Source: Hormoscilla sp.
GTDB lineage: Bacteria; Cyanobacteriota; Cyanobacteriia; Cyanobacteriales; Desertifilaceae
Direction of reading: 5' to 3'
Length of the DNA: 27,150 nt
Assembly (NCBI GenBank): GCA_051439505.1
Contig: JBFRWI010000032.1
Span: forward strand, 1 to 27,150
The notes under the pieces are model-generated. The model made no database searches. It worked only from the letters and a program-made list of their open reading frames with translations, and was not told the DNA's origin. Position numbers and translations under genes: made by a program. This document shows, in pieces, positions 2,603 to 23,300 of the stretch (within the stretch, counting starts at the first letter, position 1; each line of letters opens with the position of its first letter).

Positions 2603-2757
2603 ATTTCCCTTATTCCTCTGGTTTCAGAGGAAAGTGCGATCGCCCCCTGGTCTCAGACGAAAGTGCGATCGCCCCCCGGCCTCAGAAGAAAGTGCGATCG
2701 CCCCCTGGTTTCAGACAAAAGTGCGATCGCATTTATCTGGTCAAAGCAAATTTATAT

Positions 2758-2828
2758 GTAGGGGCGAAGCATTCTGGCAGACAATTGATAGGTATTGTCG
2801 AAAGATTTACTTCCAGAATGCTTCGCCC
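2758..2828 (+). repeat. GTAG-type REP-like long hairpin
   Basis: GTAG-GGGCGAAGCATTCTGG ... CCAGAATGCTTCGCCC. Confidence 0.85.
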
Positions 2829-2905
2829 TGGCCACCTTGGGAGAAGAGATTCGATCGCCCCTGGTTCCAGAATAAAGTGCGATCGGGGTCCATCTCATGG
2901 GCGCC

Positions 2906-2976
2906 GGGCGAAGCATTCCGGGCGTAATTTTTTGGTTTTAAGGCATAATTGGCTCGCCGGAATGCTTCGCCCCTAC
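2906..2976 (-). repeat. GTAG-type REP-like long hairpin, opposite orientation
   Basis: GGGCGAAGCATTCCGG ... CCGGAATGCTTCGCCC-CTAC. Confidence 0.85.
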
Positions 2977-3151
2977 AGGTATATTTGTGTGCGTTGGGAT
3001 ACTTGATATCGCCCCCCAGTCTCGGAAGAACGTGCGATCGCCCCCCAGTCTCGAACGAAAGTGCGATCGCCCCCCAGTCTCAGAACAAAGTGCGATCGCC
3101 CCCTGGTCCCAGAAGAAAGTGCGATTGGGTGCAACGAAGATGCATGTAATT

Positions 3152-3202
3152 AAGCCCGCGCAGGCGGGCTTTGTTCTTGTAGCCGGACCCTTTAGGGTTC
3201 GG
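3152..3202 (+). repeat. Double-hairpin REP-like element; uninterrupted relative of the element at ~3697-3876
   Basis: AAGCCCGC-GCAG-GCGGGCTT, then TGTTCTTGTAG, then CCGGACCC-TTTA-GGGTTCGG. Confidence 0.75.
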
Positions 3203-3286
3203 ATCGCTTCGGGTCTCAGCGTGCGATCGCCCCCCGGTCTCAGACAAAAGTGCGATCGCCTTTATCTGGCCAAAGCAAATTTATAT

Positions 3287-3548: not shown

Positions 3549-3644
3549 TCGTAGTTAATTATCCGAACTTGACTACGAACAGCGGGGAAACACTAAAGTG
3601 TTTACTACGAACGGCGGGTAAACACTAAAGTGTTTACTACGAAC
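3549..3644 (-). repeat. Cluster of short GTAG-type REP hairpins
   Basis: AAACAC-TAAA-GTGTTT-ACTACGAAC at 3588 and 3620, plus a TCGTAGT...ACTACGA inverted pair at 3549-3578. Confidence 0.85.
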
Positions 3645-3751
3645 CAGGGCTATTTCATTTGAAAAACAACTCATCCCTTATCCAGCCAATAATATAGCCC
3701 CTGCGCAGGGTCGGGGGCCCGGAGCGTCCCGGAGCGTGGGCTTGGTTCTTG

Positions 3752-3854
3752 TAAGCTGTCGCGCATTTAAATTGCATGGATCCAAATGCTGAAACCATTG
3801 CTATCAATGACTTTCCCCATTTTTAATTTTTAATTTTTAATTTTGAATTGTTTA
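3752..3854 (+). mobile_element. TA-flanked 99-bp non-autonomous element, copy 1, inserted in a REP-like element
   Basis: TA|AGCTGTCGCGCATTTAAATTGCAT...TTTTGAATTGTT|TA. Removing it gives GTTCTTGTAGCCG, which matches the intact element around 3173-3185. Confidence 0.85.
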
Positions 3855-5305: not shown

Positions 5306-5360
5306 TATTTGATTCATATCCGATACCCTGCACTATAATATCCCTAAGGGGGAAAGTGAT

Positions 5361-6968
5361 ATGAAGTCACAGTTGGAAACTCGCTATCGTCCGATCCGCG
5401 AATTGGCTGCCGGAGGCTTTGGCAAAACCTTCCTGGTAGAAGATACCCAGATGCCTTCTCAACGCCTCTGCGTGATGAAGCAGCTCAAACCAGTTACGGG
5501 CAACCCGCAAATACTTCAGTTACTGCAAGAACGCTTTGCTAGGGAAGCCGCTATCCTGGAAGCCCTGGGTGACCCGATCGATCGAATTCCTAAATTATAT
5601 GCTTATTTTGAGGTGGGTGGTCAATTCTATCTGGTGCAAGAATGGATAGAGGGGGCGACCTTGACGGAAAAGGTGGAAGGATCAGGCCCACTCACGGAGA
5701 CGGAAGTCCGCTCTATCTTACTCTCTCTGCTGTCCGTACTGGAACTCGTCCACGGCCAGGGAATCGTTCACAGAGATATTAAACCCGATAATGTTATCCT
5801 CCGCCAAGCCGATGGCCAGCCAGTTTTGATAGATTTCGGTGCCGTTAAGGAAATTATGGGCACCCAGGTAACTTCCCAGGGACATTCTGCCCCTAGGACG
5901 ATCGCCATTGGGACTCCCGGATACATGCCTCCAGAACAAGCGGCAGGTCGTCCGGTCTATGCTAGTGATTTGTATAGTTTGGCACTAACTGCGGTCTATC
6001 TGCTGACTGGCAAGACTCCCGCAGAATTAGAGACAAACCTATTTACGGGTAAGATTGGGTGGCGTGACTATGCTCTTAATGTCAGTGATGATTTGGCCTC
6101 GGTCCTAGACCGGGCGATCCAACCTACAGCAGGCGATCGCTTCTGTACTGCTACGGAAATGCTAGCAGCTCTAACCGCTTCTGTCAAGCCTCTCGGAACA
6201 ATATCCGCGACTCAACTATCCCCCGCACCGAGGCAGACTAAAAAGAAATCTTCTCTCTGGCAAAAAGGGGCGATCGTCAGTAGTCTGATTAGCACTTTTG
6301 TCATCTGTATTTCCTTAATTAAACCGGAAGCTTTTGCTTTCCGTTCTGCTGCTAAATTATCTCTACAACCTCCCCAGTCAGAACAAATATTCTCGCCCAT
6401 GGCAGACACCGAACCAGAAGTGATTCCCGAAAAGGCCCGATCGCCCATTCCCGAGGGGACAGCACTCAAGCAATTGCAGAAACAAGCACCGAAGCCAATT
6501 GTATCAGATCCTACTCCCGCAATTGTCCCCGATCCTACTCCCGTTCCTCAGTATACGCCCAATTCGCTCCATCTGTCCTTGTCCGGAGAAAATAGTAAAG
6601 AGCAATTGGACGAACTAGCAGACCGCTTATATTATGCCCGATATCCGGAGTTGCAAGGCACAAAAATCCAGGATGCAGAAACTAAATTGGCCCGAGAATG
6701 GACGACGATCAGAAAGGATATAGAACGGGAAGTCGATCGCCTGACAGAAAAACTGTTTCGCGAACGGCATCCGGAACTAGCAGGGCGAAAAAATCGGCCA
6801 TCTGAGTTGCGAGCAACTCGGGAAAAAATCAAGCAATGCGATGCTGTAGTAGACTACATTTTCTATTTATATCATCCCGAGTTAGCAGGCAGAAAGATCC
6901 AGTCGGAGGAAATGGAATTGGCCCGAGAATGGTCGGAAATTAAGCAGCAGGTTAGCAGTTGTCATTAA
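5361..6968 (+). CDS. Hanks-type Ser/Thr protein kinase with TM helix and C-terminal (Y/H)PEL-x-G-(R/T)K helical repeats
   Basis: LAAGGFG, HRDIKPDN, DFG and GTPGYMPPEQ motifs; hydrophobic AIVSSLISTFVICISLI; repeats YPELQGTK, HPELAGRK, HPELAGRK. Confidence 0.95.
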   Translation: MKSQLETRYRPIRELAAGGFGKTFLVEDTQMPSQRLCVMKQLKPVTGNPQILQLLQERFAREAAILEALGDPIDRIPKLYAYFEVGGQFYLVQEWIEGATLTEKVEGSGPLTETEVRSILLSLLSVLELVHGQGIVHRDIKPDNVILRQADGQPVLIDFGAVKEIMGTQVTSQGHSAPRTIAIGTPGYMPPEQAAGRPVYASDLYSLALTAVYLLTGKTPAELETNLFTGKIGWRDYALNVSDDLASVLDRAIQPTAGDRFCTATEMLAALTASVKPLGTISATQLSPAPRQTKKKSSLWQKGAIVSSLISTFVICISLIKPEAFAFRSAAKLSLQPPQSEQIFSPMADTEPEVIPEKARSPIPEGTALKQLQKQAPKPIVSDPTPAIVPDPTPVPQYTPNSLHLSLSGENSKEQLDELADRLYYARYPELQGTKIQDAETKLAREWTTIRKDIEREVDRLTEKLFRERHPELAGRKNRPSELRATREKIKQCDAVVDYIFYLYHPELAGRKIQSEEMELAREWSEIKQQVSSCH

Positions 6969-6995
6969 CAGTCAATTAGTAAATTAGCCTCCTGG

Positions 6996-7049
6996 CCCGC
7001 CGTGGGTTCAAACCCACGGCTAATAGCTAAAGTCGGTTGAAAACCGACT
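6996..7049 (-). repeat. Double-hairpin REP-like element, inverted copy of 3447-3499; could also terminate the kinase transcript
   Basis: Reverse complement AGTCGGTTTTCAACCGACT-TTAGCTATTAG-CCGTGGG-TTTGAA-CCCACGG. Confidence 0.85.
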
Positions 7050-7084
7050 CTCTATCTTGTAAAAAAAGTAATTGAAAGTTGATC

Positions 7085-7240
7085 GTAGGTTGGGTTTCCG
7101 CACGAAACCCAACCAGGCGATCGCCGAAGAACTAAAGTTCTTACTACGAACGCGGGAAGAACTAAAGTTCTTACTACGAACGGCGGCAAAAACTAAAGTT
7201 TTTACTACGAACAGGTTTGTAGTAAGGACTTTAGTCCTTC
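7085..7240. repeat. REP cluster: one GTAGGTTGGGTT...AACCCAAC hairpin plus four short TAAA-loop hairpins
   Basis: Hairpin at 7085-7114; AAGAAC-TAAA-GTTCTT at 7127 and 7157; AAAAAC-TAAA-GTTTTT at 7188; inverted AAGGAC-TTTA-GTCCTT unit at ~7215-7240. Confidence 0.85.
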
Positions 7241-7478
7241 TCTGCCCGATCGGGCCAACAATGCTATTATATTCTCTGTTGGGCGATGGGGTCGGAAATT
7301 CCACCCCTCGGCCTGGCATTTCGGACCGGACCGGACTTCTCGCTCCTGGCCAGTTACGGTCATAGATAGTTATATATGCATAAGTTGTAAATTATAAATT
7401 CCCTATTGCAATCGGTAATTGTATAATACTAGGGAAATGTTCGGTCCTGAAGGTCGGCGTTATCCCCCTAGCAATGTT

Positions 7479-8978
7479 ATGCAACAAGGTCAAATTATAG
7501 CAGGACATTACAAAATTATCCAGCCCCTGCAAGCAGGACAGCTTTGCCGGACTTATCTGGCGGAAGATACCCAACTCAAAGATAGTCGTTGTATTATTAA
7601 AAAACTTCATCCCGATTCTCAGGAAACTTTCGTCATAGAGACGGCTCAACGTCTTTTCGATCGGGAAGTGGATGTTCTCTACAAGTTGGGAAATCACGAT
7701 CGCATTCCCCGACTGCTTGCGGACATTCGGGAAAATCCGGATTTTTATCTGGTGCAGGAATGTATCGACGGCGACTCCCTCGACAAGCAGGAAATTGTTC
7801 CCGGAAAACGCTATACCGAACCCCAGGCGATCGACCTCTTGCAGCAGGTTCTGGAAATTTTGACATTTGTTCATGAAGAAGGGGTCATCCACCGGGATAT
7901 TAAACCTTCTAATTTAATGCGCCGGAAGTCGGATGGCAAGCTATTCTTGATCGATTTTGGGGCGGTTAAGGAAATTAATAAGATGGGGGGCAACTCTAGC
8001 GGACAAAATACAATCGTCGGCACTCCTGGCTATGCTCCTAGTGAACAATTAGAGGGTAACCCCTGCAAAGCTAGCGATATCTATGCTTTGGGTATGACGG
8101 TCATTTATGCTTTAACTGGTGTCCCTCCTCATCAGTTGCGCTCCGCTAATGCTCGGAAATTCAACTGGCGTCATCTGGCTCAGGTTAGCCCAGATATGGT
8201 TAAAATATTAGACAAGATGGTTTCCGCTAATCTTAAGGGGCGCTATCAAACTGTCGAGGAGGTGCTCCGGGATCTACAACCTCTGCTAGCTTCTGGCCCC
8301 ACAATTATGTCTACTAGAAAAAATTCGCTCAAACCAATCCTTTTATCAGTCGCTGTCCTGCTCGGACTCGGTGCTCTCTTCGTTGTCCCCAGAGTTTGGT
8401 CCGCTTTTCAGGCTCTCCAATTTTACAATCAGAGTAAGGAGCTGATCGATGCAGGATCCTATGAGGAGGCGATCGCGACTTTAGAGCAGGCCCTGGACAT
8501 CAAGCCTGATTTCCCGGAAGCTCTCACTGACCTTGGTTATGCTCTGGGTAAGCTAGATCGTCAAGAGGAAAAGTTCTCTGCCTGCCATCGGGCGGTAGAT
8601 GTGGACCCCTATTACGCGGAAGCCTGGAATTGTCGGGGTCTGGCTCGGTTTGCTCTCCGCGAATATGAAGATGCGATCTTGGATTACGATCGCGCTTTCG
8701 CTATCGATCGTAACCAGCTTAGAGCTTTGTATAACAAAGGCGACGCTCTCTTGGAGTTGAAACGTTACGAACAGGCGCTATTTGTTTCAGACAAGATCCT
8801 GAAGCTCGACTCCGACTATTTCATGGCTTGGTATCTCAAATGCAAGATTTTTAATCGCCAGCAGGACTTTCAAAAGGCTCTCGAATCATGCGATCGGGCT
8901 TTGGAGATGGAACCGGACCATCAAGAGACCATTAAGTTGCGCAAATGGATCCTGCAACAACAGTCGCAACAACAGTAG
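7479..8978 (+). CDS. Ser/Thr protein kinase with TM helix and C-terminal TPR repeats
   Basis: HRDIKPSN, DFG and GTPGYAPSEQ motifs; TM ILLSVAVLLGLGALFVV; TPR-like YEEAIATLEQALDIKPD and AWNCRGLA. ATG 7479 is preferred to the longer ORF-track start at 7419. Confidence 0.93.
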   Translation: MQQGQIIAGHYKIIQPLQAGQLCRTYLAEDTQLKDSRCIIKKLHPDSQETFVIETAQRLFDREVDVLYKLGNHDRIPRLLADIRENPDFYLVQECIDGDSLDKQEIVPGKRYTEPQAIDLLQQVLEILTFVHEEGVIHRDIKPSNLMRRKSDGKLFLIDFGAVKEINKMGGNSSGQNTIVGTPGYAPSEQLEGNPCKASDIYALGMTVIYALTGVPPHQLRSANARKFNWRHLAQVSPDMVKILDKMVSANLKGRYQTVEEVLRDLQPLLASGPTIMSTRKNSLKPILLSVAVLLGLGALFVVPRVWSAFQALQFYNQSKELIDAGSYEEAIATLEQALDIKPDFPEALTDLGYALGKLDRQEEKFSACHRAVDVDPYYAEAWNCRGLARFALREYEDAILDYDRAFAIDRNQLRALYNKGDALLELKRYEQALFVSDKILKLDSDYFMAWYLKCKIFNRQQDFQKALESCDRALEMEPDHQETIKLRKWILQQQSQQQ

Positions 8979-10235: not shown

Positions 10236-10426
10236 TTGACTTCACTCCTAGCATTTAGTGCTACATTGGTTTATTATATTCGGAAGCCTAACTCAATTAA
10301 TACTTGCTGCTGTTGTTGGAGCCAATACAAATGCTAAGTTTTGATAAGTTTTATGAAGCCCTGGGTTGCCCATTGCAGCCAAGTATGAATAATACCACAG
10401 AAGAGTTGAGAAGTCAAGAGGTGGAA

Positions 10427-13400
10427 GTGAAAAAAACGAGATTTCCTTTCTGGGTCTGGGCCCTGGTGCCAACGGCCCTGTCGGGACAGATGTTGCTGCC
10501 ACTCACGGCCTGGGGGCAGGCAATTACCCCGGACGGCACCCTGCCGACTCAGGTGATGCAGGATGGTGACAATTATACCATTGAAGGCGGGGGGAGAGCG
10601 GGGGGTAATCTATTTCACAGTTTTGACAAGTTCTCGGTACCCGCCGGCGGGCGGGCATTCTTTAATAATGCTGCGGATGTGGAAAATATCCTCAGTCGGG
10701 TGACGGGAGGCAATGTCTCTAATATTGATGGGTGGATTAGAGCTAATGGCAATGCTAATCTGTTCCTGATTAACCCGGCGGGAATTGTCTTTGGCCCCAA
10801 TGCGCATCTGGTTGTTGGGGGGTCGTTTCTGGGTAGTACGGCCAGTAGTCTGCTGTTCCCCGATGGTACGGAGTTTAGCGCGACAAACCAAGAGACGCCG
10901 CTGTTGACTATCAATGCTCCTATAGGTTTGCAGTTTCGGGGTAATGAGGGTAATATTGAACTTCGATCTAATATTAGTGTAGATATAAGCCCATTACCAG
11001 ACGTCCCTACACCTACACCTGCGCCTGAAATTGACCCACTTATCCCACCCCCACCAGGAACTGATATTAGAGTCCCATCACCATCTATACCCGGCTTTCC
11101 CGGAACGCAATCTAATACCCAACTTACAATAACACTGGTGGGTGGGAATGTCAGATTGGATGGGGGAAGAATGACAGCTATAGACGGAAGAATTAATTTG
11201 GGAGGTTTGGCAGCAGCGGGAACGGTGGGGCTGAATGATGATGGTAGTTTAAGTTTCCCTGATGGGGTAGCCCGAGGGAATGTATCGTTAGTTGATGTTA
11301 GATTGTGGGGGGCTATTACAGTCAATTCTGATAATTTAGAAATTTTGGAGACCAGTTTAGGGTTCGGGGAAAATATTATGGTTGATGCAACAGGAGTGAT
11401 AGTGATAGAAAAATCACGTCTACAAGTGAACGGAGATATAACAATAGAAGCAGATTCATTGTCTTTGACTGATACCCAAATAGATAGCAATTCTGTCAGT
11501 AATGCTCAAATAAGAATTATTACTCAGGGAAAAACTAAGCTTCAAGGGGGCTCGATCGTAAGTGACGTGGCGGCTATAGGTGAATCAAGCAGAGATATAA
11601 TAATAGAAAGCGGAGATATAACAATAGAAGCAGATTCATTGTCTTTGACTGATACTAAGATAGATGCTCAAGTTTCCGCCAGAGGTGGTTTCGGTAATGG
11701 GGGTCAAATCAGAATTACCACTCAGGGAGAAACTAGGCTTCAAGGGGGCTCGATCGCAAGTAATTTAGGAGAATTTGCAACGGGTAGCGGCGGAGATATA
11801 ACAATAGAAGCAGGTTCATTATATTTGACTGATACTGAAATAGATTCCAATATTTTTAGTGGAAGAGGTACGCCAGGTCAAATCAGAATTATCACTCAGG
11901 GAGAAACTAGGCTTCAAGGTGGCTCGATCAGAAGTGCTCTAGATGAAGTAGTAGCAACGAGTAGCGGCGGAGATATAACAATAGAAGCAGATTCATTATA
12001 TTTGACTGATACAGAAATAAACAGTAGTAGCAGCTTTGATATTTTCAGGGTAGGCGGTGTTGGTGGAAGCAGTAATGCTAGTCAAATCAGAATTGCCACT
12101 CAGGGAGAAACTAGACTTCAAGGTGGCTCCATCAGAAGTGATATATCAGGAGATTCTTCAATAGGTAGCGGTGGAGATATAACAATAGAAGCAGCATCAT
12201 TGTCTGTGAAAGGGACTGAAATTAATGCAAACACTTCAGGACAAGCTGAGGCAGGTAACATTGTAATAATGTCAGATGTTCTTTCTCTCGCTGAAAATGC
12301 CGCTATAACAGTTAGCAGTATTGATATCCCAGGAGGTTCATCTGGCAATATTGATATCCAAGTAGGCGGCCTTCATATAGACAACGGCACGATCGGGGCA
12401 GAAAATATAGCCAGTCAACAAGGAAACATCGATCTGTTTAGCAATAATTCCATCGTATTGCAAAATAATTCCACAGTGTCAGCTACCACAGTTGATGGAA
12501 GAGCAGGTACGGTGACGGTAAATGCTCCCAATTCTGTGACGATCTCTGGTGAGAGTGAGATAACATCTTCAGCAACAGGTAATGGCAGGGCAGGAGATGT
12601 GAGTGTAACCAGCAATCAATTTATCGTTCAGGATGCGTCAGAGGTAGCAGTCAGCAGTGCAGGGACAGGAGACGCTGGAAACCTCAACATCAATGCTGGA
12701 AACATCTCACTAAATAGCGGCAGTCTCAGTGCGACCACAAACTTCGGCGGACAAGGAAACATCCAGCTCACAAGCAGGGACTCAGTCGCCTTGCGAAACA
12801 ACTCCACAGTTTCAGCCTCCACATCTAATGGACAAGCAGGTTCCGTGACGGTAAATGCTCCCAACAATTCTGTAATCCTGGAGGAGAACAGTCAGATCAG
12901 TTCTTCTGCCACAGGTAATGGGACCGCAGGAAATGTGGGCATAACTACCACTGCCCAATTTATCCTTCGCAACGGTTCAGAAGTAACCGTCAGCAGTCAA
13001 AAGGTGGAAGATTCTGAGAACCCCACAATAAATATGGATGCTCCTAACGGTCAAAACCCAGCAGTGGGCAACCTCAGAGTGGATGCTAGTGAAATTTTCT
13101 TAGACAATGGCACCCTCAGCGCCGATACTGGTTCTCAAGAAGAGGGAAACATTACCCTTAACGCCGAGGGCAGGATCGAACTACGCAATGACAGCACGAT
13201 CAGCACAGACGCCGTCGGCACTGCCACAGGGGGCAACATCACCATCAGCACCGAAGAATTCTTAATCGCCTTTCCCGAAGGAAATAACGACATCAGAGCC
13301 AACGCCCAAGATGGCCCAGGCGGGAAAATCGAGATTACAGCAGACGGCCTCCTCGGCATCGACATCCGCGAAAGACCAAAATCAAGCAGCAACGACATCA

Positions 13401-13855
13401 CAGCCCGTTCTGAAACCGGTCCTCAAGGGGACGTGACATTCAACACCCCCAATGCCGACATCATACAGGGATTGGTAGAACTATCAGAGAACGTAGTAGA
13501 CCCCAATGAAATAGTCGCCCAAACATGTCGCCCAAATCGCACCGGAGGCAGTAGTTTAATCGAGACGGGGCGAGGGGGCTTACCACCGACACCCTACGAC
13601 CCCCTCACGGACGATACCATACGGGTAGGAGGAGAAGTGACCCCGCCGCGCCTGGCGGACCTGCCGGACCCAGAGGAAATTGTCACCAAAGTAGAGCGCA
13701 CCGAAGAAATCACATCAGACGATATCCAACCAGCCCGAGGGTGGTTTGTCAACGAAAAAGGGAACATCGTCCTGACGCCCTATCCCACCCCGAATGCAAC
13801 CGGGCGTCATCCGGGGGCCCGCCCAGGTTGTGGGCCCCTCCGCAGCCAAAAGTGA
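10427..13855 (+). CDS. Filamentous haemagglutinin-family two-partner-secretion exoprotein (TpsA)
   Basis: Signal peptide, then TPS domain NLFHSFDKFSV...ILSRVTGG...NLFLINPAGIVFGPNA, beta-helix repeats, and a C-terminal C...TGRGGLPP...ARGW motif. GTG 10427 is chosen for its upstream GAGGTG; alternatives are 10385 and 10304. Confidence 0.92.
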   Translation: MKKTRFPFWVWALVPTALSGQMLLPLTAWGQAITPDGTLPTQVMQDGDNYTIEGGGRAGGNLFHSFDKFSVPAGGRAFFNNAADVENILSRVTGGNVSNIDGWIRANGNANLFLINPAGIVFGPNAHLVVGGSFLGSTASSLLFPDGTEFSATNQETPLLTINAPIGLQFRGNEGNIELRSNISVDISPLPDVPTPTPAPEIDPLIPPPPGTDIRVPSPSIPGFPGTQSNTQLTITLVGGNVRLDGGRMTAIDGRINLGGLAAAGTVGLNDDGSLSFPDGVARGNVSLVDVRLWGAITVNSDNLEILETSLGFGENIMVDATGVIVIEKSRLQVNGDITIEADSLSLTDTQIDSNSVSNAQIRIITQGKTKLQGGSIVSDVAAIGESSRDIIIESGDITIEADSLSLTDTKIDAQVSARGGFGNGGQIRITTQGETRLQGGSIASNLGEFATGSGGDITIEAGSLYLTDTEIDSNIFSGRGTPGQIRIITQGETRLQGGSIRSALDEVVATSSGGDITIEADSLYLTDTEINSSSSFDIFRVGGVGGSSNASQIRIATQGETRLQGGSIRSDISGDSSIGSGGDITIEAASLSVKGTEINANTSGQAEAGNIVIMSDVLSLAENAAITVSSIDIPGGSSGNIDIQVGGLHIDNGTIGAENIASQQGNIDLFSNNSIVLQNNSTVSATTVDGRAGTVTVNAPNSVTISGESEITSSATGNGRAGDVSVTSNQFIVQDASEVAVSSAGTGDAGNLNINAGNISLNSGSLSATTNFGGQGNIQLTSRDSVALRNNSTVSASTSNGQAGSVTVNAPNNSVILEENSQISSSATGNGTAGNVGITTTAQFILRNGSEVTVSSQKVEDSENPTINMDAPNGQNPAVGNLRVDASEIFLDNGTLSADTGSQEEGNITLNAEGRIELRNDSTISTDAVGTATGGNITISTEEFLIAFPEGNNDIRANAQDGPGGKIEITADGLLGIDIRERPKSSSNDITARSETGPQGDVTFNTPNADIIQGLVELSENVVDPNEIVAQTCRPNRTGGSSLIETGRGGLPPTPYDPLTDDTIRVGGEVTPPRLADLPDPEEIVTKVERTEEITSDDIQPARGWFVNEKGNIVLTPYPTPNATGRHPGARPGCGPLRSQK
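11431..12230 (+). repeat. Near-identical internal coding repeats in tpsA
   Basis: GGAGATATAACAATAGAAGCAG occurs five times (GDITIEA); the QIRIxTQGxTxLQGGSI unit occurs four times. Confidence 0.9.
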
Positions 13856-14195: not shown

Positions 14196-14408
14196 ATGAG
14201 TAATTCTGTATCTTTACAAAAGGCGATCGAGTATGTGGAAGCTTTATCTCCAGAAGACCAAGATGTGTTGTTGGAACTAATTCAACAAAGGCGGAGGCGC
14301 AGGGAAATAGCCAATAACGCCGCCCAGACCCTAGCAGCAATGCAAGCAGGTACGGCAAAGCGAGGTACCCTAGAGGAATTAAAAGCTGATTTACTGGATC
14401 GAGAATGA
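14196..14408 (+). CDS. Putative type II antitoxin
   Basis: 70 aa (LQKAIEYVEALSPEDQDVLLELI...RREIA...GTLEELKADL) with an ATGA overlap with the downstream toxin. Confidence 0.8.
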   Translation: MSNSVSLQKAIEYVEALSPEDQDVLLELIQQRRRRREIANNAAQTLAAMQAGTAKRGTLEELKADLLDRE

Positions 14409-14689
14409 GAACTTTAGTTTGGGACAACAGTTTTCGGCGGGGGTTTAAGAGATTTGTTCGTAAAAACCCCCAGCTTGAGCTGAAAATATTTGCTGTTTTG
14501 GAATTATTGGCTAACGATCCATTTGCTCCCTCCTTAAAAGCCCACAAGCTGCGCGGTCAATTAGAGGGATTATGGGCTTGTTGGGTTGAGTACGATTGTC
14601 GAATTATTTATGCTATGGAACAAGACGATGACTCGGAGGAGGAGATGATTATATTAATTGACATTGGCACTCATGATGAAGTATACTAA
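14405..14689 (+). CDS. RelE/StbE (YafQ-like) type II toxin
   Basis: 94 aa: SFRRGFKR...LLANDPF...LKAHKLRGQLEGLWAC...DCRIIY...IDIGTHDEVY. Confidence 0.92.
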   Translation: MRTLVWDNSFRRGFKRFVRKNPQLELKIFAVLELLANDPFAPSLKAHKLRGQLEGLWACWVEYDCRIIYAMEQDDDSEEEMIILIDIGTHDEVY

Positions 14690-14938: not shown

Positions 14939-15829
14939 ATGACGAGAACAGCCCATGACAGCTTTGCGAAAGATTTGCTGTCAGAAATGTTGGATAAATT
15001 AGGGCAATTTCAGGCTCCCCTAGAGGTGAGAGATTCCGCCCGTCAAATAGACGCTTGGTTCGTGCCAGCAGAATCATCCGTCGAGGAACGGTCAAAACTG
15101 GGCTTATTAGGGGCGATCGTAGAAAAAGAATGCTTGCTAGAACCAGTCCATGCCCAACTAAACAATTCAAAATTCAAAATTCAGAATTCAAAATGGGAAA
15201 ACCCTTTGAGGGAAAGGGTTTCATAAAATATACCTATGCAATTTAAATGCGCGACAGCTTATCTTCCATAAGTTACAGAGGAGTTATTAGCCAAGAAAGG
15301 TTGGCCCGTTGGCGTATATTTTTCACCGGGGATATTTAAGGTGGCGATCGTGGCCATCAATCAACTCCCAGCAAACGCAGAAACCCTATGGTTGAGAATG
15401 CTGGGGAAAGGAGGGGTACAGAAGCGGGCCTTTAATGAAGTGAAGGAATTGCCGCAAGAGTCTCCATTCAGTAACAATGTATTGGATGTAGTGCAGAAAT
15501 GGTATTCGGCACTCCACGGAAAAGATGAAAAAACCCCAGAGGAACAGGAGTTAATTATGGAATTAGCAACAAGCTTTGCGGAATGGGAACAAGCGACCTT
15601 ACAAAAAGGGATCGAACGCGGTATCGAACGCGGCCAAGTTCAGAATCAGCGCCAGTTTATTGAAAACTTCCTGAAGGCTCGATTTGGCGCGATCGATGAA
15701 GCGTTGGCAGAGGCGATCGAGTCATTGGTGAAGATGTCAATGCCAGAAGTGACCGGCCTGATGCTAGAGTTATCTTCATTGGAAAAAGAGGAGTTTTTGG
15801 CGCGGTTGTCAAATCACCCAGAACAGTAA
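14939..15829 (+). pseudogene. Disrupted Rpn-like PD-(D/E)XK nuclease gene
   Basis: 5' part MTRTAHDSFAK...QIDAWFVP...LGLLG...LLEP; 3' part WPVGVYF...AIVAINQLP...ETLWLRMLG...RFG. It is interrupted by the TA-flanked element. Even after removing that element the frames do not join and the middle segment is missing. Confidence 0.85.
15159..15261 (-). mobile_element. TA-flanked 99-bp non-autonomous element, copy 2, inserted in the Rpn-like gene
   Basis: On + strand: TA|AACAATTCAAAATTCAAAA...ATGCAATTTAAATGCGCGACAGCT|TA, the reverse complement of the ends of copies 1 and 3. Confidence 0.85.
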
Positions 15830-15953
15830 GCGTCTAGGTACGAGTCGATCGCATTTGCAGATGAACTGAAAAAGATATCTGATGCCCGGTGGTCGTGGGG
15901 GCGATCGGGCATCACGGGTGGGCCATAGGTGGGCGGATGCCCACCCGAGGTAA

Positions 15954-16925
15954 CTATTGTGAAAGATCTGGAAAACGGGCCAAGAGATCTCCACGAGACA
16001 ACTGAGATAATTGCATAATCAAGCTAGTCAAATCGGCTGGAGGCAAAGCCAACATTTGTTCAACAATAGCAGTCAGTTCTGAATCTAAATCACCAAACCG
16101 AAATACCAGCAAATTTTGGAGCATAGCGCGACGTTCCTGCAGGGCCCCTTGCTGGATACCTCGCTGTTCGCCTTGCTGAATGCCTTGCTGAATGCCTTGC
16201 TGAATGCCTTGCTGTTCGCCTTCTTGAAATTTATTTTTCAGTTTCTTGTCCAACAGTGGTTCTAATTGCATAACCAAATCCCTCTCAACTTCATCCAATT
16301 TACGGTCCGACAAATGCTCGTAAAAGTTTAACAGCAGCTCAAGGGTCATCTCCCGGTTGGGGTGCTCTGGTGGCAGTGCCTTGAGTTCTTCTATTGCCCG
16401 ACTTTGTGTACTTCCATTACCCATGAGCCTCAACCAGAGTGTTTCTGGGGTTTCCGGTAACTTGTGGAGGACAACAATAGCCGTTCTCAATCTTTTCGGC
16501 AGGAAATAGACTCCAGGCATCCACTTATTATCTAGCTTAGCACTAAATTCAGATAACAGTCCTTTTGATGCTGTGGGCGTCAGCACCCACAATCTCGGGT
16601 ATTCTTCCCAAGTAACTTTCTTGCCCGTGCGATTAGCCTCTCTCTTGTCCTGACTGCATACATATCGCAATTTTACCATACAGTCGCAGATTTCATCTGG
16701 GGTTGCCGCACTGTGAAATGGTTCAAAAATTGCTCTGGTGGCTGCCATCCTGCCTAGCAGTCCCAAGGTTTCACGATGTTTTGATAACTCCGGGTTAGGA
16801 ACGAACCAAACATCTATTTGCATCACCTCTGATGCGACTCTCTTGTCTATCTCTACTGAGCCGCATTTGTTCAGGAACCCGTCCAGGCAATCCTTATAAA
16901 ACTGGTCGTAAATAAATCTGGTCAT
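15954..16925 (-). CDS. Rpn-like PD-(D/E)XK nuclease family protein
   Basis: MTRFIYDQFYK...QIDVWFVP...IFEPF...ETLWLRLMG, then GIQQ tandem repeats (12-bp unit) and a DUF4351-like RFGDL C-terminus. Confidence 0.88.
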   Translation of the reverse strand: MTRFIYDQFYKDCLDGFLNKCGSVEIDKRVASEVMQIDVWFVPNPELSKHRETLGLLGRMAATRAIFEPFHSAATPDEICDCMVKLRYVCSQDKREANRTGKKVTWEEYPRLWVLTPTASKGLLSEFSAKLDNKWMPGVYFLPKRLRTAIVVLHKLPETPETLWLRLMGNGSTQSRAIEELKALPPEHPNREMTLELLLNFYEHLSDRKLDEVERDLVMQLEPLLDKKLKNKFQEGEQQGIQQGIQQGIQQGEQRGIQQGALQERRAMLQNLLVFRFGDLDSELTAIVEQMLALPPADLTSLIMQLSQLSRGDLLARFPDLSQ

Positions 16926-17002
16926 CTTTCTCCAACATGTAAATTTACATCTGTTTCACTACTGGCGATCGCTCTTAAAATTAGCTCTCTTTACTTCTTT
17001 AT

Positions 17003-17033
17003 ATTCTAACATATATAGACCAGGTATTGTCAA
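17003..17033 (-). promoter_or_regulatory. Putative extended -10 promoter of the Rpn-like gene 15954-16925
   Basis: Minus strand TTGACA-N19-TAGAAT with a TGn extension; the same layout occurs upstream of the paralogue. Confidence 0.5.
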
Positions 17034-17182
17034 GGTTTTGTCTAATTAATTTACTTTGGGTGAACTCCGCTAATAAGGGCGATCTGTCCATCTGAGATAA
17101 TTGAGTAATCAAAGGTATTAATTTGCAAATTTATGTTCTATTTTTATGTCCAACTGTGGTTTGAATTCCCTAATTTTTATTT

Positions 17183-17553
17183 CAATGATACAGCAGTAGG
17201 TGGGCGGTGCCCACCCTACAGCTAATGTTTTTCAGCAGGTTCTGAGAACCGCGCCAATAGAAAAGTTTCTCCCAATGATACAGCAGTAAGCTGTCGTGCA
17301 TTTAAATTGCATAGGCAGTTCCACCGAGATCCTTGTTCTGAGGGACTTTCCCAATAAAGAATTAAAGAATTGCTGAATTTTTAATTTTGAATTGTTTAGG
17401 TGGGCGGTGCCCACCCTACAACTAATCTTTTTCAGCAGGTTCTGAGAACCGCGCCAAGAGAAAAGTTTCTCCCAATGATACAGCAGTAGGTGGGCGGTGC
17501 CCACCCTACGTAACTAATCTTCTTCAGCAGGTTTTGAGAACCGCGCCAAGAGA
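17183..17553 (-). repeat. Three tandem ~90-bp units, each made of the Rpn-like gene 3' end plus a GTAGGGTGGGCACCGCCCACC REP hairpin
   Basis: CAGCAGTA starts at 17191, 17281 and 17481, giving spacings of 90 and 90+110; the extra 110 bp is the inserted element plus one TA. Confidence 0.92.
17287..17398 (+). mobile_element. TA-flanked 108-bp non-autonomous element, copy 3, inserted in a REP hairpin
   Basis: CAGCAG-TA|AGCTGTCGTGCATTTAAATTGCAT...TTTTGAATTGTT|TA-GGTGGG. The two neighbouring units show the empty site CAGCAG-TA-GGTGGG. Confidence 0.92.
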
Positions 17554-18467
17554 TCCGATCGGGACAACTGAGGTAGTTGCATAATCAAGCGAATCGAATC
17601 TTCTGGTGGCAAAGCCAATATTTGCTCGGCGACAGATGCGAGTTCTGCATCTAACTCCCCAAAGCTAACTTGCAGCCCACTCTCGATCATAATGCGACGT
17701 CCCCGCTGTTCGCCTCGCTGAATGCCTTGCTGAATGCCTTGCTGAATGCCTTGCTGTTCGCCTTCTTGAAATTTCTTTTCCAGTTTTTTGTCCAACAGTG
17801 GTTCTAATTGCATAACCAAATTACTCTCCACTTCATCCAATTCACGCTCTGACAAATGCTCGTAAAAGTTTAACAGCAATTCGAGGGTCATCTCCCGGTT
17901 GGGGTGCTCTGGTGGCAATGCCTTGAGTTCTTCTATTGCCCGACTTTGCGTACTTCCATTACCCATGAGCCTCAACCAGAGTGTTTCTGAGTTCTCCGGC
18001 AACTGGTGAATCACAACAATAGCCGTTCTCAAGGTTTTCCCCAGGGAATAGACTCCAGACTCCCAACTTTTATCTAGTTTAGCATTTAATCCAGATAAAA
18101 GTGCTGTGGATGCTGTCGGCGTCAGTACCCATAATCTGGGAAAGTCTTCCCAAGCAACCTGACGGCGCGAGCGATTAGCTTCTCGCTGTTCCTGGTTGCA
18201 TACATATCGCAATTTTACCATGCAATCACAGATTTCGCCTGGGGTGGCCGGACTGTGAAACGGTTCAAAAATGGATCTGGTGGCCGCCATCCTGCCTAGG
18301 AATCCCAAGGTGGAGCGATGTGCTGATAAATCTGGGTTAGGAACAAACCAAACATCTATTTGCTTCACCTCTGAGGAAACTCTCTTGTCTATCTCTACTG
18401 AGCCGCATTTGTTCAGAAACCCATCCAGGCAATCCTTATAAAACTGGTCGTAAACAAATCTCGTCAT
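17514..18467 (-). CDS. Rpn-like PD-(D/E)XK nuclease family protein, tandem paralogue of 15954-16925
   Basis: MTRFVYDQFYK...QIDVWFVP...IFEPF...ETLWLRLMG...GIQQ repeats. Confidence 0.88.
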   Translation of the reverse strand: MTRFVYDQFYKDCLDGFLNKCGSVEIDKRVSSEVKQIDVWFVPNPDLSAHRSTLGFLGRMAATRSIFEPFHSPATPGEICDCMVKLRYVCNQEQREANRSRRQVAWEDFPRLWVLTPTASTALLSGLNAKLDKSWESGVYSLGKTLRTAIVVIHQLPENSETLWLRLMGNGSTQSRAIEELKALPPEHPNREMTLELLLNFYEHLSERELDEVESNLVMQLEPLLDKKLEKKFQEGEQQGIQQGIQQGIQRGEQRGRRIMIESGLQVSFGELDAELASVAEQILALPPEDSIRLIMQLPQLSRSDLLARFSKPAEED

Positions 18468-18936: not shown

Positions 18937-20637
18937 GTGGTGCGAAATTATACATTGAGACACAAATGGGCGATCGTGCCAGCGATCGTAATGCTGGGCC
19001 TGGCAGATGGGGTAGGAACGGGGGCGATCGCCCAGGTGACGGATCGGGAACAGCAGCAGCCCCTACCGACAGAACCATTACCTCCACTGGATGATATTCT
19101 CGAAGATATTCCCACTCCCAGGCCAGACTTGCCACAGCTTCCGGCTTTTACTGGCACTATTCCCGTAAAAGGTTTTCAGGTAGTGGGAAGTACAGTGTTC
19201 AAAGCCGAAAATTTAAAAAAAGTATTGGAAGAATTTACTAACCAAAACCTGAGTTTTAATCAACTTCTGGCAGCGGAAGAGAAGATAGACCAACTATACC
19301 TGAAAGAAGGATATATTAATTCCGGTGCGGTCATCCCGGCCCAAGAGATCGCTGACGGCATCGTGACGATCCAGGTAATCGAAGGTAGCCTAGAAGATAT
19401 AGAAGTGAGAGTAATAAGCGGGCGAATAAACCCGAATTACGTGCGCAGTCGCCTAGCAAAGGCCAGCAAACCTCTGAACAGAGATCGTCTGCAAGAGGCC
19501 CTGCAACTGCTACAATTAGACCCGTCGATCGAAAACATAAATGCGGAATTATCAGTAGGTTCGCGTCGGGAACGCTGGATTTTATCAGTCAGGGTAACTG
19601 CTGCCCCGGCCTTTAAGCCACAAATATTTGCCGATAACGCCCGCAACCCCAGCGTGGGGAGTTTCCAGCGGGGGACGCAACTTAACTACCACCTGTTAGG
19701 ACTGGGAGACTCCATCGGGTTTAATTATACTAATACTGATGGTAGTAATGAATTTCAAGGCAGTTATAGCTTGCCGGTGAATCCTAGTGATGGCACAATT
19801 AGTTTCCGCTATCGGACCATCGACAGTGACATTATAGAACCGCCTTTTGATGACCTGGATCTGAAATCAAACTCTCGCACCTATGAATTAACCTACCGAC
19901 AACCGATCGTGCGCAATGCGACTACCAACTTTACAGAAGAACTGGCCCTGGGGTTGACAGCTTCTCGCCAAGAAAGCGATACTACCTTATTGGGCGAGAA
20001 ATTTCCCCTTTCCCCCGGGGCCGATGATGACGGTGCCACCCGGATCTCCGCCCTGCGGTTTTTCCAAGAATGGAGTAAGCGCGATCGCCGCCAAGTCATT
20101 GCCGCCCGATCGCAGTTCAGTTTGGGAGTGGGGGCGTTCGATGCTACAATTAACGAGGTCGAACCAGACAGTCGGTTTTTCGTCTGGCGGGGACAAGTGC
20201 AATATCTGCGCCAACTGGGCCGAGATACGACCTTGCTGCTGCGATCGGACGTGCAACTTTCCACCACCAGTTTACTGTCCCTAGAACAATTTGGTTTAGG
20301 GGGGATCCAAAGTGTGCGTGGTTATCGCCAGGACGCCCTGCTGGCAGATAATGGCTTCTTTGCTTCTGCTGAACTGCGACTGCCCATTTTGCGCTGGCGT
20401 CAAGCTGATGCGGTATTGTCTTTTACTCCTTTTGTAGATTTCGGTGCAGTGGGGAATAAAGACCGCGATAACCCCGATGATAATACCCTGGTATCAGTGG
20501 GCTTTGGTCTACTATGGCAAATGGGCGATCGCCTGCGGGCCCGGGTTGACTGGGGCATTCCTTTAGTAGATATTGATAGGAGGTATAGAACATGGCAAGA
20601 AAACGGCGTCTATTTTTCCATCGAATTCAATCCTTAA
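18937..20637 (+). CDS. ShlB/FhaC/HecB-family TpsB outer-membrane transporter
   Basis: Signal peptide, POTRA region (IDQLYLKEGYINSGAVIPAQEIADGIVTIQVIEG), VRGY motif (SVRGYRQD) and a beta-barrel C-terminus (WQENGVYFSIEF). Confidence 0.95.
   Translation: MVRNYTLRHKWAIVPAIVMLGLADGVGTGAIAQVTDREQQQPLPTEPLPPLDDILEDIPTPRPDLPQLPAFTGTIPVKGFQVVGSTVFKAENLKKVLEEFTNQNLSFNQLLAAEEKIDQLYLKEGYINSGAVIPAQEIADGIVTIQVIEGSLEDIEVRVISGRINPNYVRSRLAKASKPLNRDRLQEALQLLQLDPSIENINAELSVGSRRERWILSVRVTAAPAFKPQIFADNARNPSVGSFQRGTQLNYHLLGLGDSIGFNYTNTDGSNEFQGSYSLPVNPSDGTISFRYRTIDSDIIEPPFDDLDLKSNSRTYELTYRQPIVRNATTNFTEELALGLTASRQESDTTLLGEKFPLSPGADDDGATRISALRFFQEWSKRDRRQVIAARSQFSLGVGAFDATINEVEPDSRFFVWRGQVQYLRQLGRDTTLLLRSDVQLSTTSLLSLEQFGLGGIQSVRGYRQDALLADNGFFASAELRLPILRWRQADAVLSFTPFVDFGAVGNKDRDNPDDNTLVSVGFGLLWQMGDRLRARVDWGIPLVDIDRRYRTWQENGVYFSIEFNP
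20578..20584 (+). promoter_or_regulatory. Shine-Dalgarno AGGAGGT for the CHAT gene, located inside tpsB
   Basis: AGGAGGT-ATAGAAC-ATG, with ATG at 20592. Confidence 0.7.
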
Positions 20638-23300
20638 ATAGGATATTATCTCCCCGGAGGCGATCGCGAATTTTCATCATCCTCGCCTTAGTGGGATTAA
20701 TTGCCAGCATCAGCATATCGATGTTCCAGCCAGCAGTAGCGAGACAGACAAACTACCGAGTATCTCAAAACGCAGAACCTGAAGAAAAATCTCGCAATGC
20801 CGGAGAATTTTATAGTGAGGGTAAGTACGATCGGGCCATAGAACTGTGGAAAGAAGCAGCCCAGATATATCGGGAACGGGAAGATCGATATGAAGAGATG
20901 GAGAGTTTGATAAATATAGCAACAGCCCAGTATTTTCTAGGGAACTATCCTCAATCATGCAACGGTTTATTGCAAGCATTTGGGGGCGAACAGTTCGAGC
21001 ATTTAGACTGCAAGGTATTAACTGAGAATACCATAACTCTGCAAGGAGAACTAGATGGGATAAAGTCAGAAGAGGACGAGGACTCAACCGTAGGGTTGCG
21101 GGAAAAGCTAGAAGCCCTCACCGCAGAACAAATAGAAGGTTTAACTCCCGAGAGCCAAAAGTTCCAAGAGGAGCTAAACTTGTTAATCAAGACCGTAAAA
21201 GCCGAACCAGACTCTCTCAATAAAGCCACGGGTTTGCGCAGGTTTGGGGACGTATTGAGGCAGTTAGGGAACTACCAGGTATCCCACAAAGTTTTAACCG
21301 AAAGCTTAGATGTAGCCAGGAGATTAAATTCGGTCCAAGAAGAAAGCGCTACCCTAATCAGTTTAGGCAATGTGGAGCAGGATTGGGGCAAAAGTTTTCA
21401 GGAACTGCAAGATCTGAAGAAAGCAGCAAGAGACCTCAAGCTTCTGCAAAAGGCAGGGAAATTAGAAGAAGCCCCATTAGGAAAAGCTTTGGCTCATTTG
21501 AAAGAGGCGAAAAAATATTATCAACAAGCTAGCCAGCGATCGGAGTCGGACACGACCAGGGTGCAAGCAGAAATTAACTATCTGAGTTTATTGATATACT
21601 CAAACCAAATTTTTCAAGCTGACATCAGCCAAAAGGTGACTGACTTAGAGAGGCAAATTAAAGGGATGCTAGTTAACCTACCGGTCAGTCGTGCAGCAAT
21701 ATATGCTCGGATCAACCTGGTGGAAACTCTCACAGAAAGCAGAGACCCCATTGCTAGTGACGTGCAGCTATTAAAGGACGCGGTCAAGGAAGCCCGCCAG
21801 TTGCAAGACCGACAAGCAGAAGCCTACGCTTTGGGGAGTTTGGGGAAATTCTACGAAGCAGCAGGGCAGTTAGCAGAAGCGCAAAAGCTGACAGCAGCAG
21901 CCCTGAAGCTGATTTCACCTTTTGAAAAGCCAGAGGTGGCCTATCTGTGGCATTGGCAGCAAGGACGCATTTTCAAGCAAGAGGGGCAGACAAAATTAGC
22001 TACAGACTATTACCGCCAAGCATATAATGACCTGCAAACCTTGCGCAAAGATCTGGCCAGCATTAATCCTAACGTGCAATTTTCTTTTCGGGATACCATC
22101 GAACCAGTCTATCGAAATTATGTCAGCTTACTGCTGCGATCGGATGACCCCAGTCAAGAGGATCTCAAAAAAGCCCAGGAAGTAATAGACTTTCTGCAAA
22201 TAGCAGAACTGGAGAACTTCTTTGGCGATCCATGTTTGCAAGTAAAAGCTCCTGTTGATATTAACGAGGTTATTGACAAGGAAGGTTCGGAGGCCGCAGT
22301 CATCTATCCGATCGTCTTAGCGGACCACTTAGAAATCATCCTCACCTTGCCCGGGCAAAACCTGGCTCGTCACAGAGTTGAGGTCAGTCGAGAAGAACTA
22401 GAAAGGACGATCGATGAACTACTCCGGCTAGTTTTAGATCGGAACACTACGGATATTTTTTCCCCAGCGGAACAACTCTATGATTGGTTAATCAGACCTA
22501 TAGACGCGGACCTGAAGCAAAGTGGAGTGCAAACCTTAGTCTTCGTGCTGGATGGGGAACTGCGGAGGATCCCGATGCCTTTGCTTTACGATCGGAAAAC
22601 CAACCAATATCTCTTGGAACAGGACTATAACATCGCCCTGACCTCAAGTTTGCAACTGCTAGACGCTCCCCAAAAATTGAGAAATATCAAGGTTTTAGCC
22701 GCAGGCATCAGCGAAGAAAAGAAAGTAGAAGGAAAGTCTTTTACCGCCCTGCCCTACGTAAAGGTAGAATTAGAGGAGAACATTAAACCTATAGTTTCCT
22801 CTGAAGTATTGCTCGACGATGAGTTTACCAAAGACCGCTTCCAAGCCCTTCTGTCAGCATCTAACTATAACATCGTTCACTTGGCAACTCACGGGGAGTT
22901 CAGTTCCGACCTGAAAGAGACCTTTATACTTATATGGGACGAACTGATAGACATCAACGAGTTGAATAGCTTCCTGCAACAGCAAAATCCAGATGGATCG
23001 GGTAAAATTGAGCTGTTAGTATTAAGTGCGTGCCAGACAGCAGAAGGGGACGATCGGGCGGTATTAGGATTAGCAGGAGTAGCAGTGAGGGGAGGCGCGG
23101 GCAGTACCCTAGGTACATTATGGAAAGCCAATGATAAAGCCACTGCCGAGCTGATGGGAGAATTTTACCGCAATTTAACTGCTGAGGGAACAGAAGTAAG
23201 TAAGGCATTGCGCGAGGCCCAACTAGCATTATTGAAGAAAGAAGAGTACCAACATCCCTATTACTGGGCCCCCTTCGTACTCGTAGGAAATTGGCTATAA
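20592..23300 (+). CDS. TPR + CHAT (caspase HetF-associated) domain protein with an N-terminal signal/TM segment
   Basis: IFIILALVGLIASISISMFQPAVA, TPR-like helices, intact catalytic motifs HLATHG and LSACQT, C-terminal HPYYWAPFVLVGNWL. Confidence 0.95.
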   Translation: MARKRRLFFHRIQSLNRILSPRRRSRIFIILALVGLIASISISMFQPAVARQTNYRVSQNAEPEEKSRNAGEFYSEGKYDRAIELWKEAAQIYREREDRYEEMESLINIATAQYFLGNYPQSCNGLLQAFGGEQFEHLDCKVLTENTITLQGELDGIKSEEDEDSTVGLREKLEALTAEQIEGLTPESQKFQEELNLLIKTVKAEPDSLNKATGLRRFGDVLRQLGNYQVSHKVLTESLDVARRLNSVQEESATLISLGNVEQDWGKSFQELQDLKKAARDLKLLQKAGKLEEAPLGKALAHLKEAKKYYQQASQRSESDTTRVQAEINYLSLLIYSNQIFQADISQKVTDLERQIKGMLVNLPVSRAAIYARINLVETLTESRDPIASDVQLLKDAVKEARQLQDRQAEAYALGSLGKFYEAAGQLAEAQKLTAAALKLISPFEKPEVAYLWHWQQGRIFKQEGQTKLATDYYRQAYNDLQTLRKDLASINPNVQFSFRDTIEPVYRNYVSLLLRSDDPSQEDLKKAQEVIDFLQIAELENFFGDPCLQVKAPVDINEVIDKEGSEAAVIYPIVLADHLEIILTLPGQNLARHRVEVSREELERTIDELLRLVLDRNTTDIFSPAEQLYDWLIRPIDADLKQSGVQTLVFVLDGELRRIPMPLLYDRKTNQYLLEQDYNIALTSSLQLLDAPQKLRNIKVLAAGISEEKKVEGKSFTALPYVKVELEENIKPIVSSEVLLDDEFTKDRFQALLSASNYNIVHLATHGEFSSDLKETFILIWDELIDINELNSFLQQQNPDGSGKIELLVLSACQTAEGDDRAVLGLAGVAVRGGAGSTLGTLWKANDKATAELMGEFYRNLTAEGTEVSKALREAQLALLKKEEYQHPYYWAPFVLVGNWL

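Follow-up and report, generated by a model that had tools for sequence, protein, structure and literature searches.

The tiny TA-flanked element that occurs in three diverged copies in the DNA analysed here, a 27,150-nucleotide stretch of a Hormoscilla sp. contig (JBFRWI010000032.1; hereafter the window), is probably a miniature element of the IS630/Tc1-mariner kind that carries one true terminal inverted repeat (TIR) and, as a surrogate for the second, an array of heptamers, and that is moved in trans by a DDE transposase of the ISNpu2 clade. Alignment with an autonomous element identifies the left end as a complete IS630 TIR and the right end as something other than a TIR, the inner part of the repeat being replaced by (CAAAATT)x4, while filled and empty sites show that the element moves as a unit with duplication of a TA dinucleotide. 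The window is contig C32 of an assembly (G000) of 6.47 Mb in 232 contigs, 48% GC and 93% complete; other contigs of this genome are cited below in the same manner.

Three copies in the window and their family in the genome

Copy 1 lies at 3754..3852 (+ strand, 99 bp), copy 2 at 15161..15259 (- strand, 99 bp) and copy 3 at 17289..17396 (+ strand, 108 bp), and on re-check the coordinates, lengths, strands and TA flanks that a first-pass annotation of the window had given for all three proved exact. The TIRs of copies 1 (3754..3777, +) and 2 (15236..15259, -) match, at 24/24 positions, the 3' TIR of an IS630 element carried by a Stanieria plasmid (L183, described below), and that of copy 3 (17289..17312, +), likewise of the ISNpu2-clade type, differs from the same Stanieria repeat by one mismatch. 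At the other end, copies 1 (3818..3852, +) and 2 (15161..15195, -) have a four-heptamer array plus a terminal 7-mer, and copy 3 has a degenerate six-unit heptamer tail with the terminus AATTGTT (17353..17396, +) as its putative surrogate second end. The TA duplication around copy 3 occupies 17287..17288 on the TIR side and 17397..17398 on the heptamer side, the latter being the start of a REP-like hairpin. Copy 3 sits between two 90-bp tandem units (17197..17486, +) that are identical at 87/90 positions and carry the hairpin; the spacing of these units, 200 = 90 + 108 + 2, implies that TA was doubled. The look-alike empty sites previously proposed at 17191 and 17481, which are the empty junctions of the tandem units, and near 3173 were all confirmed, the last being a paralogue of the copy-1 target in a REP-like repeat with a single TA (3173..3186, +). 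Copy 2 interrupts a gene at 14939..15829 (+) that is now split into two ORF pieces and belongs to no Pfam family; coding sequence adjacent to the copy has been lost relative to the homologue in locus L253, and the gene is not restored.

The broken gene is one of three paralogues of about 300 aa at 14939-18467 that contain 12-bp repeat units towards the C-terminus and match no Pfam family. Elsewhere in the window, positions 2592-3283 hold at least 12 copies of a 29-bp tandem repeat centred on a GCGATCGC palindrome, which is presumably HIP1-like, and positions 3585-3654 and 7124-7222 hold tandem repeats of 30-32 bp with TACTACGAAC cores; a copy of the element in locus L290 lies inside a tandem repeat similar to these. 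The segments 10304-13855, 18937-23300 and 14405-14689 contain genes for a TPS-domain protein, an ShlB-type transporter, a CHAT/TPR protein and a YafQ-like type II toxin, and 3941-8978 contains three ORFs that resemble Ser/Thr kinases, judged from sequence only. Rfam returned 0 matches in the window at the gathering score.

Across the genome, the 24-nt left end has 121 matches at up to 4 mismatches, where a single mononucleotide-shuffled genome gave 0, and TA stands directly before 111 of the 116 left ends found at up to 3 mismatches. Ninety-one left ends are paired with a heptamer end, which bears out the expectation that the two ends co-occur genome-wide, and all 91 copies differ in sequence. 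The length is narrowly set, 48 of the 91 being 99 bp and 18 being 100 bp (66/91 at 99-100 bp). Because the pairing search demanded TA on the heptamer side, its independent yield is the TA on the TIR side, present in 85/91. A hidden Markov model (HMM) built from 99-bp copies recovered 104 full-length copies, with TA kept at 92/104 TIR ends and 88/104 heptamer ends by automatic end calling that misplaces a few. Conservation per position is about 90% or more at both ends, and mean identity among copies is 68% in the middle (47 copies). The terminus TTGTT, taken from the window as general, occurs in 19 of the 91 paired copies as against 56 with TTGCT. Lengths peak near 87, 99, 108-110 and 120, in copies that are not independent of one another. 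Small palindromic inserts occur at the same position (about 65) of copies on C31, C48, C53, C111, C131, C220 and C225, and in a same-genus genome (G002, locus L178) one copy has been triplicated within a 2,483-bp tandem amplification.

The two ends and the candidate helper

When plasmids were searched with copy 1, 12 records were returned, one of which matched its first 26 bases exactly. This record, Stanieria sp. NIES-3757 plasmid AP017376 (L183), contains a complete, TA-flanked IS630 element of 1,236 bp with imperfect TIRs and a 386-aa ORF whose stop codon falls inside the 3' TIR, the repeat with which copies 1 and 2 agree over their first 24 bases; the miniature element thus has one end in common with an autonomous IS630 element. 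HTH and DDE_3 domains are present in the encoded transposase (Pfam DDE_3, E 3.8e-30; NCBIfam IS630, NF033545, 252.9 bits against a cut-off of 100), and residues D186, D297 and E334, which we take to be the catalytic triad, are invariant or nearly so in five aligned members. An in-frame insertion of 16 residues in the Stanieria protein contains a small palindromic repeat (L183:3036-3075). Relatives occur in 18 plasmid records, one of which (L211, 58% identity) is labelled 'IS630-like element ISNpu2 family transposase' in RefSeq, and in 11 of 41 related genomes. Nine complete elements of the clade were measured, that of the RefSeq-labelled gene among them, all TA-flanked and with AGCT-type TIRs, and 26 TIRs of the clade gave the consensus AGCTGTTACGCATCTAAATTGCAT.

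The same TIR also bounds symmetric miniature inverted-repeat elements (MITEs), which occur at 3 loci of 119-120 bp in this genome and as at least 75 distinct elements in records of Microcoleus, Coleofasciculus, Tychonema, Hormoscilla, Nostoc, Halothece and Pleurocapsa; among those listed, 29/75 are 99 bp long. Among viral contigs, one locus has an inverted pair about 100 bp apart. Homology between the middle of the element and the 3' end of the insertion sequence was not supported, 1 of 14 comparisons reaching P < 0.05.

The first-pass annotation had regarded the element as non-autonomous with no helper encoded nearby, a view that extends from the window to the whole assembly: in this genome, at 93% completeness, Pfam DDE_3, tblastn and NF033545 detected no IS630 DDE domain and no clade member, apart from one N-terminal-only fragment. 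Within the genus, only broken helper remnants were found (G001, G003 and G004), with no TIR seen beside those in G001 and G004. Another genome, G026, has an open 370-aa helper gene (in L187) together with the asymmetric form of the element. The first 30 DDE_3 loci from five genomes belong to other IS630 clades, none with this TIR. One candidate for the autonomous partner, a young multicopy hit in G001 and G004, was rejected, as it proved to be what is left of a MITE, lacking TA and lodged within the end of another transposase element; at the loci concerned (L170-L174, L179 and L180), the young multicopy element has a 522-aa ORF and the remnant in its end is of the symmetric kind.

Read inward, the right end consists of TA, AGCAATT and then (CAAAATT)x4, with exactly four units in 71 of 91 copies. 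Tandem repetition of a 7-nt unit in about four copies is the form of an STRR heptamer array, and we take the (CAAAATT)x4 array to be a repeat of the STRR type. The outer bases kept next to TA are AGC, often AAC or AAA. Against the TIR profile this end scores 1.5 bits, as compared with 14-32 bits for the 26 true TIRs; of 14 possible registers of the heptamer, the one used fits the profile best, and it beats shuffled versions (P 0.0097). The earlier statement that the element has no TIRs therefore stands for the pair, whose consensus ends match in inverted orientation at 13/24 positions, and falls for the single left end. In short, the element shares with IS630/Tc1-type MITEs a short, non-coding, multicopy character, and lacks the inverted repeats at both ends.

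The layout is neither confined to one TIR type nor to this genome. G000 contains 125 such arrays; 109 consist of four units, and for 81 this TIR lies upstream. The same 99-100 bp layout occurs in four same-genus genomes and in Hormoscilla records L090 and L113, and a 99-bp asymmetric layout is present in a further family, f14 (4/4 loci from G556 and 2/2 from G026). The end motif alone was found in 17 of 301 genomes searched across the phylum (15 of 35 in family f6); of 27 such ends, four are accompanied by a TA-flanked, TIR-like sequence that exceeds the 99th percentile of the null, and most are without a recognisable partner. Period-7 tandem arrays number 746 in this genome, versus 16-153 for periods 5, 6 and 8-11. 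Visual inspection of up to 14 examples of each of the commonest arrays (AATTAGC, AATGGCT and AACTGAC) revealed no fixed terminus at TA.

Four-heptamer blocks also form the second end of elements with three other TIR types in this genome. Elements with an AGTAGTT-type TIR and (CGTAGTT)x4, read as (AACTACG)x4 on the element strand, are present in seven copies, mostly 126 bp and TA-flanked (C41:+3218, C51, C86, C111, C194, C219 and C2), their TIR being that of another IS630 element (L128), and symmetric MITEs with the AGTAGTT-type TIR coexist with them. In a GTGC-type MITE, the inner part of the second TIR has given way to (CAAAATT)x4, also written (TTTTGAA)x4 as a tail, in 10 copies of 99-103 bp (on C26, C70, C79, C112, C174, C183, C208 and C219), and a similar TIR bounds an IS630 element in L132. 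A CGTGAG-type element with (CGTAGTT)x4, again an (AACTACG)x4 tail, has five copies of about 121 bp (C2, C37, C119, C126 and C131). Seven hybrids in this genome join the TIR of one family to the tail of another, and what every family retains of its own TIR at the weak end is the outer 3-18 bases. As a separate observation, at 17 of 19 TIRs of an IS630 type (C9, C14, C37, C72, C91, C185, C189 and others), a REP hairpin lies 59-95 bp on and is apparently the other end.

Filled and empty sites and the choice of target

The site of copy 1 is empty, with a single TA, in two of the four same-genus genomes (G002 and G003), the difference being precisely 101 bp; the filled/empty polymorphism on which the earlier proposal of mobility depended thus exists. 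The copy-1 region is rearranged in G001 and G004, with no alignment across the site, and the copy-3 site could be aligned across in none of the four relatives. Within this genome, paralogous empty junctions appear only when the element plus 2 bp is removed (6 of 81 sites, two of the six being the tandem pair's own junctions), and never for removal of +0, +1, +3 or +4; together, orthologous and paralogous empty sites establish the TA target duplication. Restoration of reading frames on removal had no discriminating power (5, 6 and 5 of 81 for +0, +1 and +2). Of 16 copies from relatives checked in this genome, 8 are without paired orthologous flanks and 6 are rearranged or ambiguous; one (L278) is common to both, with flank-like divergence, and one (L271), whose TIR junction is damaged, is clearly empty here. 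This combination of a shared and an empty site implies that insertions span the divergence of these species.

No joint that skips a copy was present among the 15 joints listed, of 28, from contigs of four public runs of one study, a source that drops rare variants and is silent on rare events. A circle junction had been proposed as a check. It is not diagnostic, because tandem copies with one shared TA (C143) already produce the same junction in the chromosome; copies in this arrangement, which mimic a circle junction, also occur on C29 and in locus L120.

At 85 reconstructed targets only TA is conserved, no outside position exceeding 0.25 bits. The RTAG consensus proposed from the window was an accident of its three sites, and we rejected it: RTAG is found at 19/85 sites and CTAN at 38/85. 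What survives of the proposed REP preference is a weak bias, with no extended target motif: a GGTGGGC-N3-GCCCACC hairpin lies within 25 nt of 7/85 targets, as against 0.34% of all TA sites, a baseline that includes coding TAs and so overstates the enrichment. All seven hairpins stand on the heptamer side. Next to the heptamer end, the first 10 bp of the flank are rich in GC and poor in A (GC 0.64 versus 0.48 on the TIR side, p 1.3e-8), a bias that persists without the REP sites (0.63 versus 0.47); A-poverty recurs beside 27 heptamer ends from other families (A 0.14), and a similar but weaker flank bias is present in symmetric MITEs (86 copies, p 2.9e-4). Start or stop codons are weakly favoured at the heptamer end (10/85 versus 5/85 on the TIR side). 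On C100, C167, C174, C176 and C192, the heptamer-side TA supplies the base before the ATG of a long ORF, an arrangement seen at 5/85 targets on the heptamer side, 2/85 on the TIR side and 0.5% of random TA sites.

Mechanism, alternatives and relation to known systems

In the reading that we favour, an ISNpu2-clade DDE transposase would act in trans, moving the element by cut-and-paste into TA with duplication of the dinucleotide. A transposase dimer may load on the true TIR and capture the weak end at close range, 99 bp away, where the retained outer bases would serve the catalytic domain and the A-tract array would substitute, with low specificity, for the DNA-binding site; the constant length of 99 bp may hold the two ends in helical phase. 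As the helper is absent from the assembly, it would be unassembled, lost or supplied by a passing plasmid. Related transposases offer points of comparison. In the portions of the ISY100 report available, the transposase alone excises the element and inserts it at TA with duplication, and protects the 24-bp TIR (PMC2170065). For Mos1, the inner part of the inverted repeat is bound in cis and the outer part by the catalytic domain belonging to the partner subunit (PMC4505599, in part), and for Hsmar1 synapsis by capture of a naked end has been proposed (PMC3687335, in part). In favour of this reading are the identity of the TIR with that of the Stanieria insertion sequence, its presence on symmetric MITEs, the empty sites of copy 1, the junctions found only at +2, and a TA retention close to the 34/39 normal TA duplications obtained with ISY100 in vitro (PMC2170065, in part). 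Set against it are the score of the heptamer end, 1.5 bits versus 14-32, and, since ISY100 transposase protects its whole 24-bp TIR, the fact that binding to the array is an assumption. The lack of a helper in this genome, with only broken remnants in the genus, also weighs against it, as do copy 2, which does not restore its gene, and the joints listed, none of which skips a copy. Furthermore, a symmetric transpososome does not predict the polar flank bias or an excess of right pieces without a TIR.

These last two features are what a polar mode of insertion would explain. Here the heptamer end would be joined first, by one-ended strand transfer and repair or by target-primed copying from RNA with a reverse transcriptase (RT), and the TIR end second, sometimes through microhomology. 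Once split pieces are joined, the HMM yields 52 right pieces without a TIR versus 14 left pieces without a tail, and true truncations into unique DNA number about 15 versus about 5 (by eye; binomial p 0.04 on hand counts). Longer duplications replace outer TIR bases in C167, C148, C221 and L293, duplications scoring at least 8 occur at 6/125 ends against a null near 1%, the GC-rich flank lies beside the heptamer end, single-end insertions are the commonest ISY100 product in vitro (PMC2170065, in part), and the genome has three RT genes. We nonetheless consider polar insertion unlikely. The 104 full-length copies have a tight mode at 99-100 bp, and TA is lost no more often on the TIR side (12/104) than on the heptamer side (16/104), counts that leave a less faithful joining of the TIR end unsupported. 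The six long duplications include one tandem copy and several that fall within REP or tandem repeats; most TIR-less pieces are members of other MITE families or adjoin another repeat, and detection favours an array over a left fragment; and the symmetric MITEs have a flank bias of the same kind, if weaker. With long duplications at 6/125 ends and 104 full-length copies, the pattern is not that of a target-primed retroelement, although a minority excess of TIR-less pieces remains.

A division of labour between an IS630 transposase at the TIR and either a host protein that binds heptamers or bends DNA, or a second transposase at the array would account for the fixed number of units (four in 109/125 arrays and in 71/91 element ends), for the use of two heptamer units by four unrelated TIR types with exchange of ends, and for the presence of the end motif in 17/301 genomes searched, often without a recognisable upstream TIR. 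Such a scheme strikes us as improbable, in that no such protein has been identified and no transposase lies between two heptamer ends: of six outward-facing pairs in this genome, five are back-to-back copies or remnants and one is 223 bp of mixed repeats, and the fetched loci contain none. Four units are moreover the mode in Xanthomonas heptamer arrays, which the consulted portion of PMC4692102 leaves unlinked to mobile elements. That symmetric MITEs inserted first and a heptamer-generating process then overwrote the second TIR of each copy in place is very hard to credit. Among tandem arrays here heptamers indeed predominate (746 of period 7), the unit of family B resembles the first 7 bases of its own TIR, and the end variants GCT, GTT and TTT do not follow the lineages of the middle (20/47 nearest neighbours have the same end, about chance). 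But length and junction are constant, no remnant of a second TIR is found in 91 copies, the same 99-bp layout exists in family f14, and the middle differs from that of the symmetric MITEs. The first-pass annotation had preferred a recombinase-type element of the IS110 or IS607 kind, with TA as the crossover core and REP or RTAG as the target, a proposal now barely tenable. It draws on the asymmetric ends, on the 7/85 targets at REP with the hairpin on the heptamer side in all seven, and on the fact that a filled/empty pair alone cannot separate a core from a duplication. One end, however, is the TIR of an IS630 element that encodes a DDE transposase, so that the ends are not unrelated to DDE TIRs; the 85 targets have no motif beyond TA; and TA duplication is a demonstrated product of an IS630 transposase (PMC2170065, in part). 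A match of the ends to IS630 TIRs had been named beforehand as grounds for abandoning the proposal, and such a match was found for one end, the other being a heptamer array.

The IS630 reading may tentatively be taken further, in that the four-heptamer block could be a portable adaptor end that replaces the transposase-binding site just inside the last 3-18 bases of a TIR. Single-TIR elements might thus be movable by several IS630 transposases, perhaps with a host heptamer-binding protein, and with a polar choice of target; one-TIR transposition and subsequent decay of the TIR half could then disperse at least two STRR types (CAAAATT and CGTAGTT) in filamentous cyanobacteria.

Among known systems, the ISNpu2 clade shares with the element a 24-bp TIR and TA on both sides, and the element differs in having no transposase gene and only one TIR. 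Correia, RUP and ERIC elements duplicate TA. With these MITEs, and with MaeMITEa-h of Microcystis, the MITEs of Anabaena and Nezha, the element has in common a length of about 100 bp, the lack of coding sequence, high copy number and, presumably, mobilisation in trans (PMC3184786, PMC2779907, both in part); they are defined by inverted repeats at both ends, as cyanobacterial MITEs generally are in the extracts available (PMC3542288, PMC3184786, PMC2779907), and the element has no second repeat. ISY100 of Synechocystis is alike in its 24-bp TIR, its TA duplication and a similar share of imperfect junctions, and unlike in having two near-identical TIRs, both bound by the transposase (PMC2170065, in part). 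With IS110 and IS607 elements and REPINs there is a likeness in asymmetric ends and occasional REP targets, and a difference in the DDE-type TIR at one end, the lack of an extended target motif and the lack of a GTAG hairpin within the element. The STRR and other small dispersed repeats of cyanobacteria resemble the right end, in that the unit is a rotation of AAAATTC, present about four times and with palindromic inserts in some copies, and differ in that the array here comes with a fixed terminus, with TA and, at a distance of 99 bp, with a TIR (this TIR upstream in 81/125). Meeks in 2001 reportedly listed 'STRR7 AAAATTC', and Mazel in 1990 and Elhai in 2008 are said to have treated STRR heptamers and small dispersed repeats. 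Heptamer arrays, mostly of four units in Xanthomonas, generally have no mobile-element link in the part of one survey available (PMC4692102), and a second leaves their transmission by mobile elements open (PMC4679880, in part). Our literature search yielded no description of this layout, which may nonetheless have been described before, and no match for 'ISNpu2'; the one supplement searched had no matching sequence text.

The element works like an IS630 MITE but lacks one of the two TIRs by which such elements are defined, and it is filed as a variant and not as a standard MITE. With a single recognisable TIR, a DDE-type element has apparently reached about 100 copies, which is relevant to how little a transpososome requires of its second end. 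MITE catalogues and searches based on TIRs would miss such elements. One class of cyanobacterial heptamer repeats is now linked to a named clade of enzymes amenable to expression and assay, and the claim that such elements spread heptamer repeats is limited to two types, CAAAATT and CGTAGTT.
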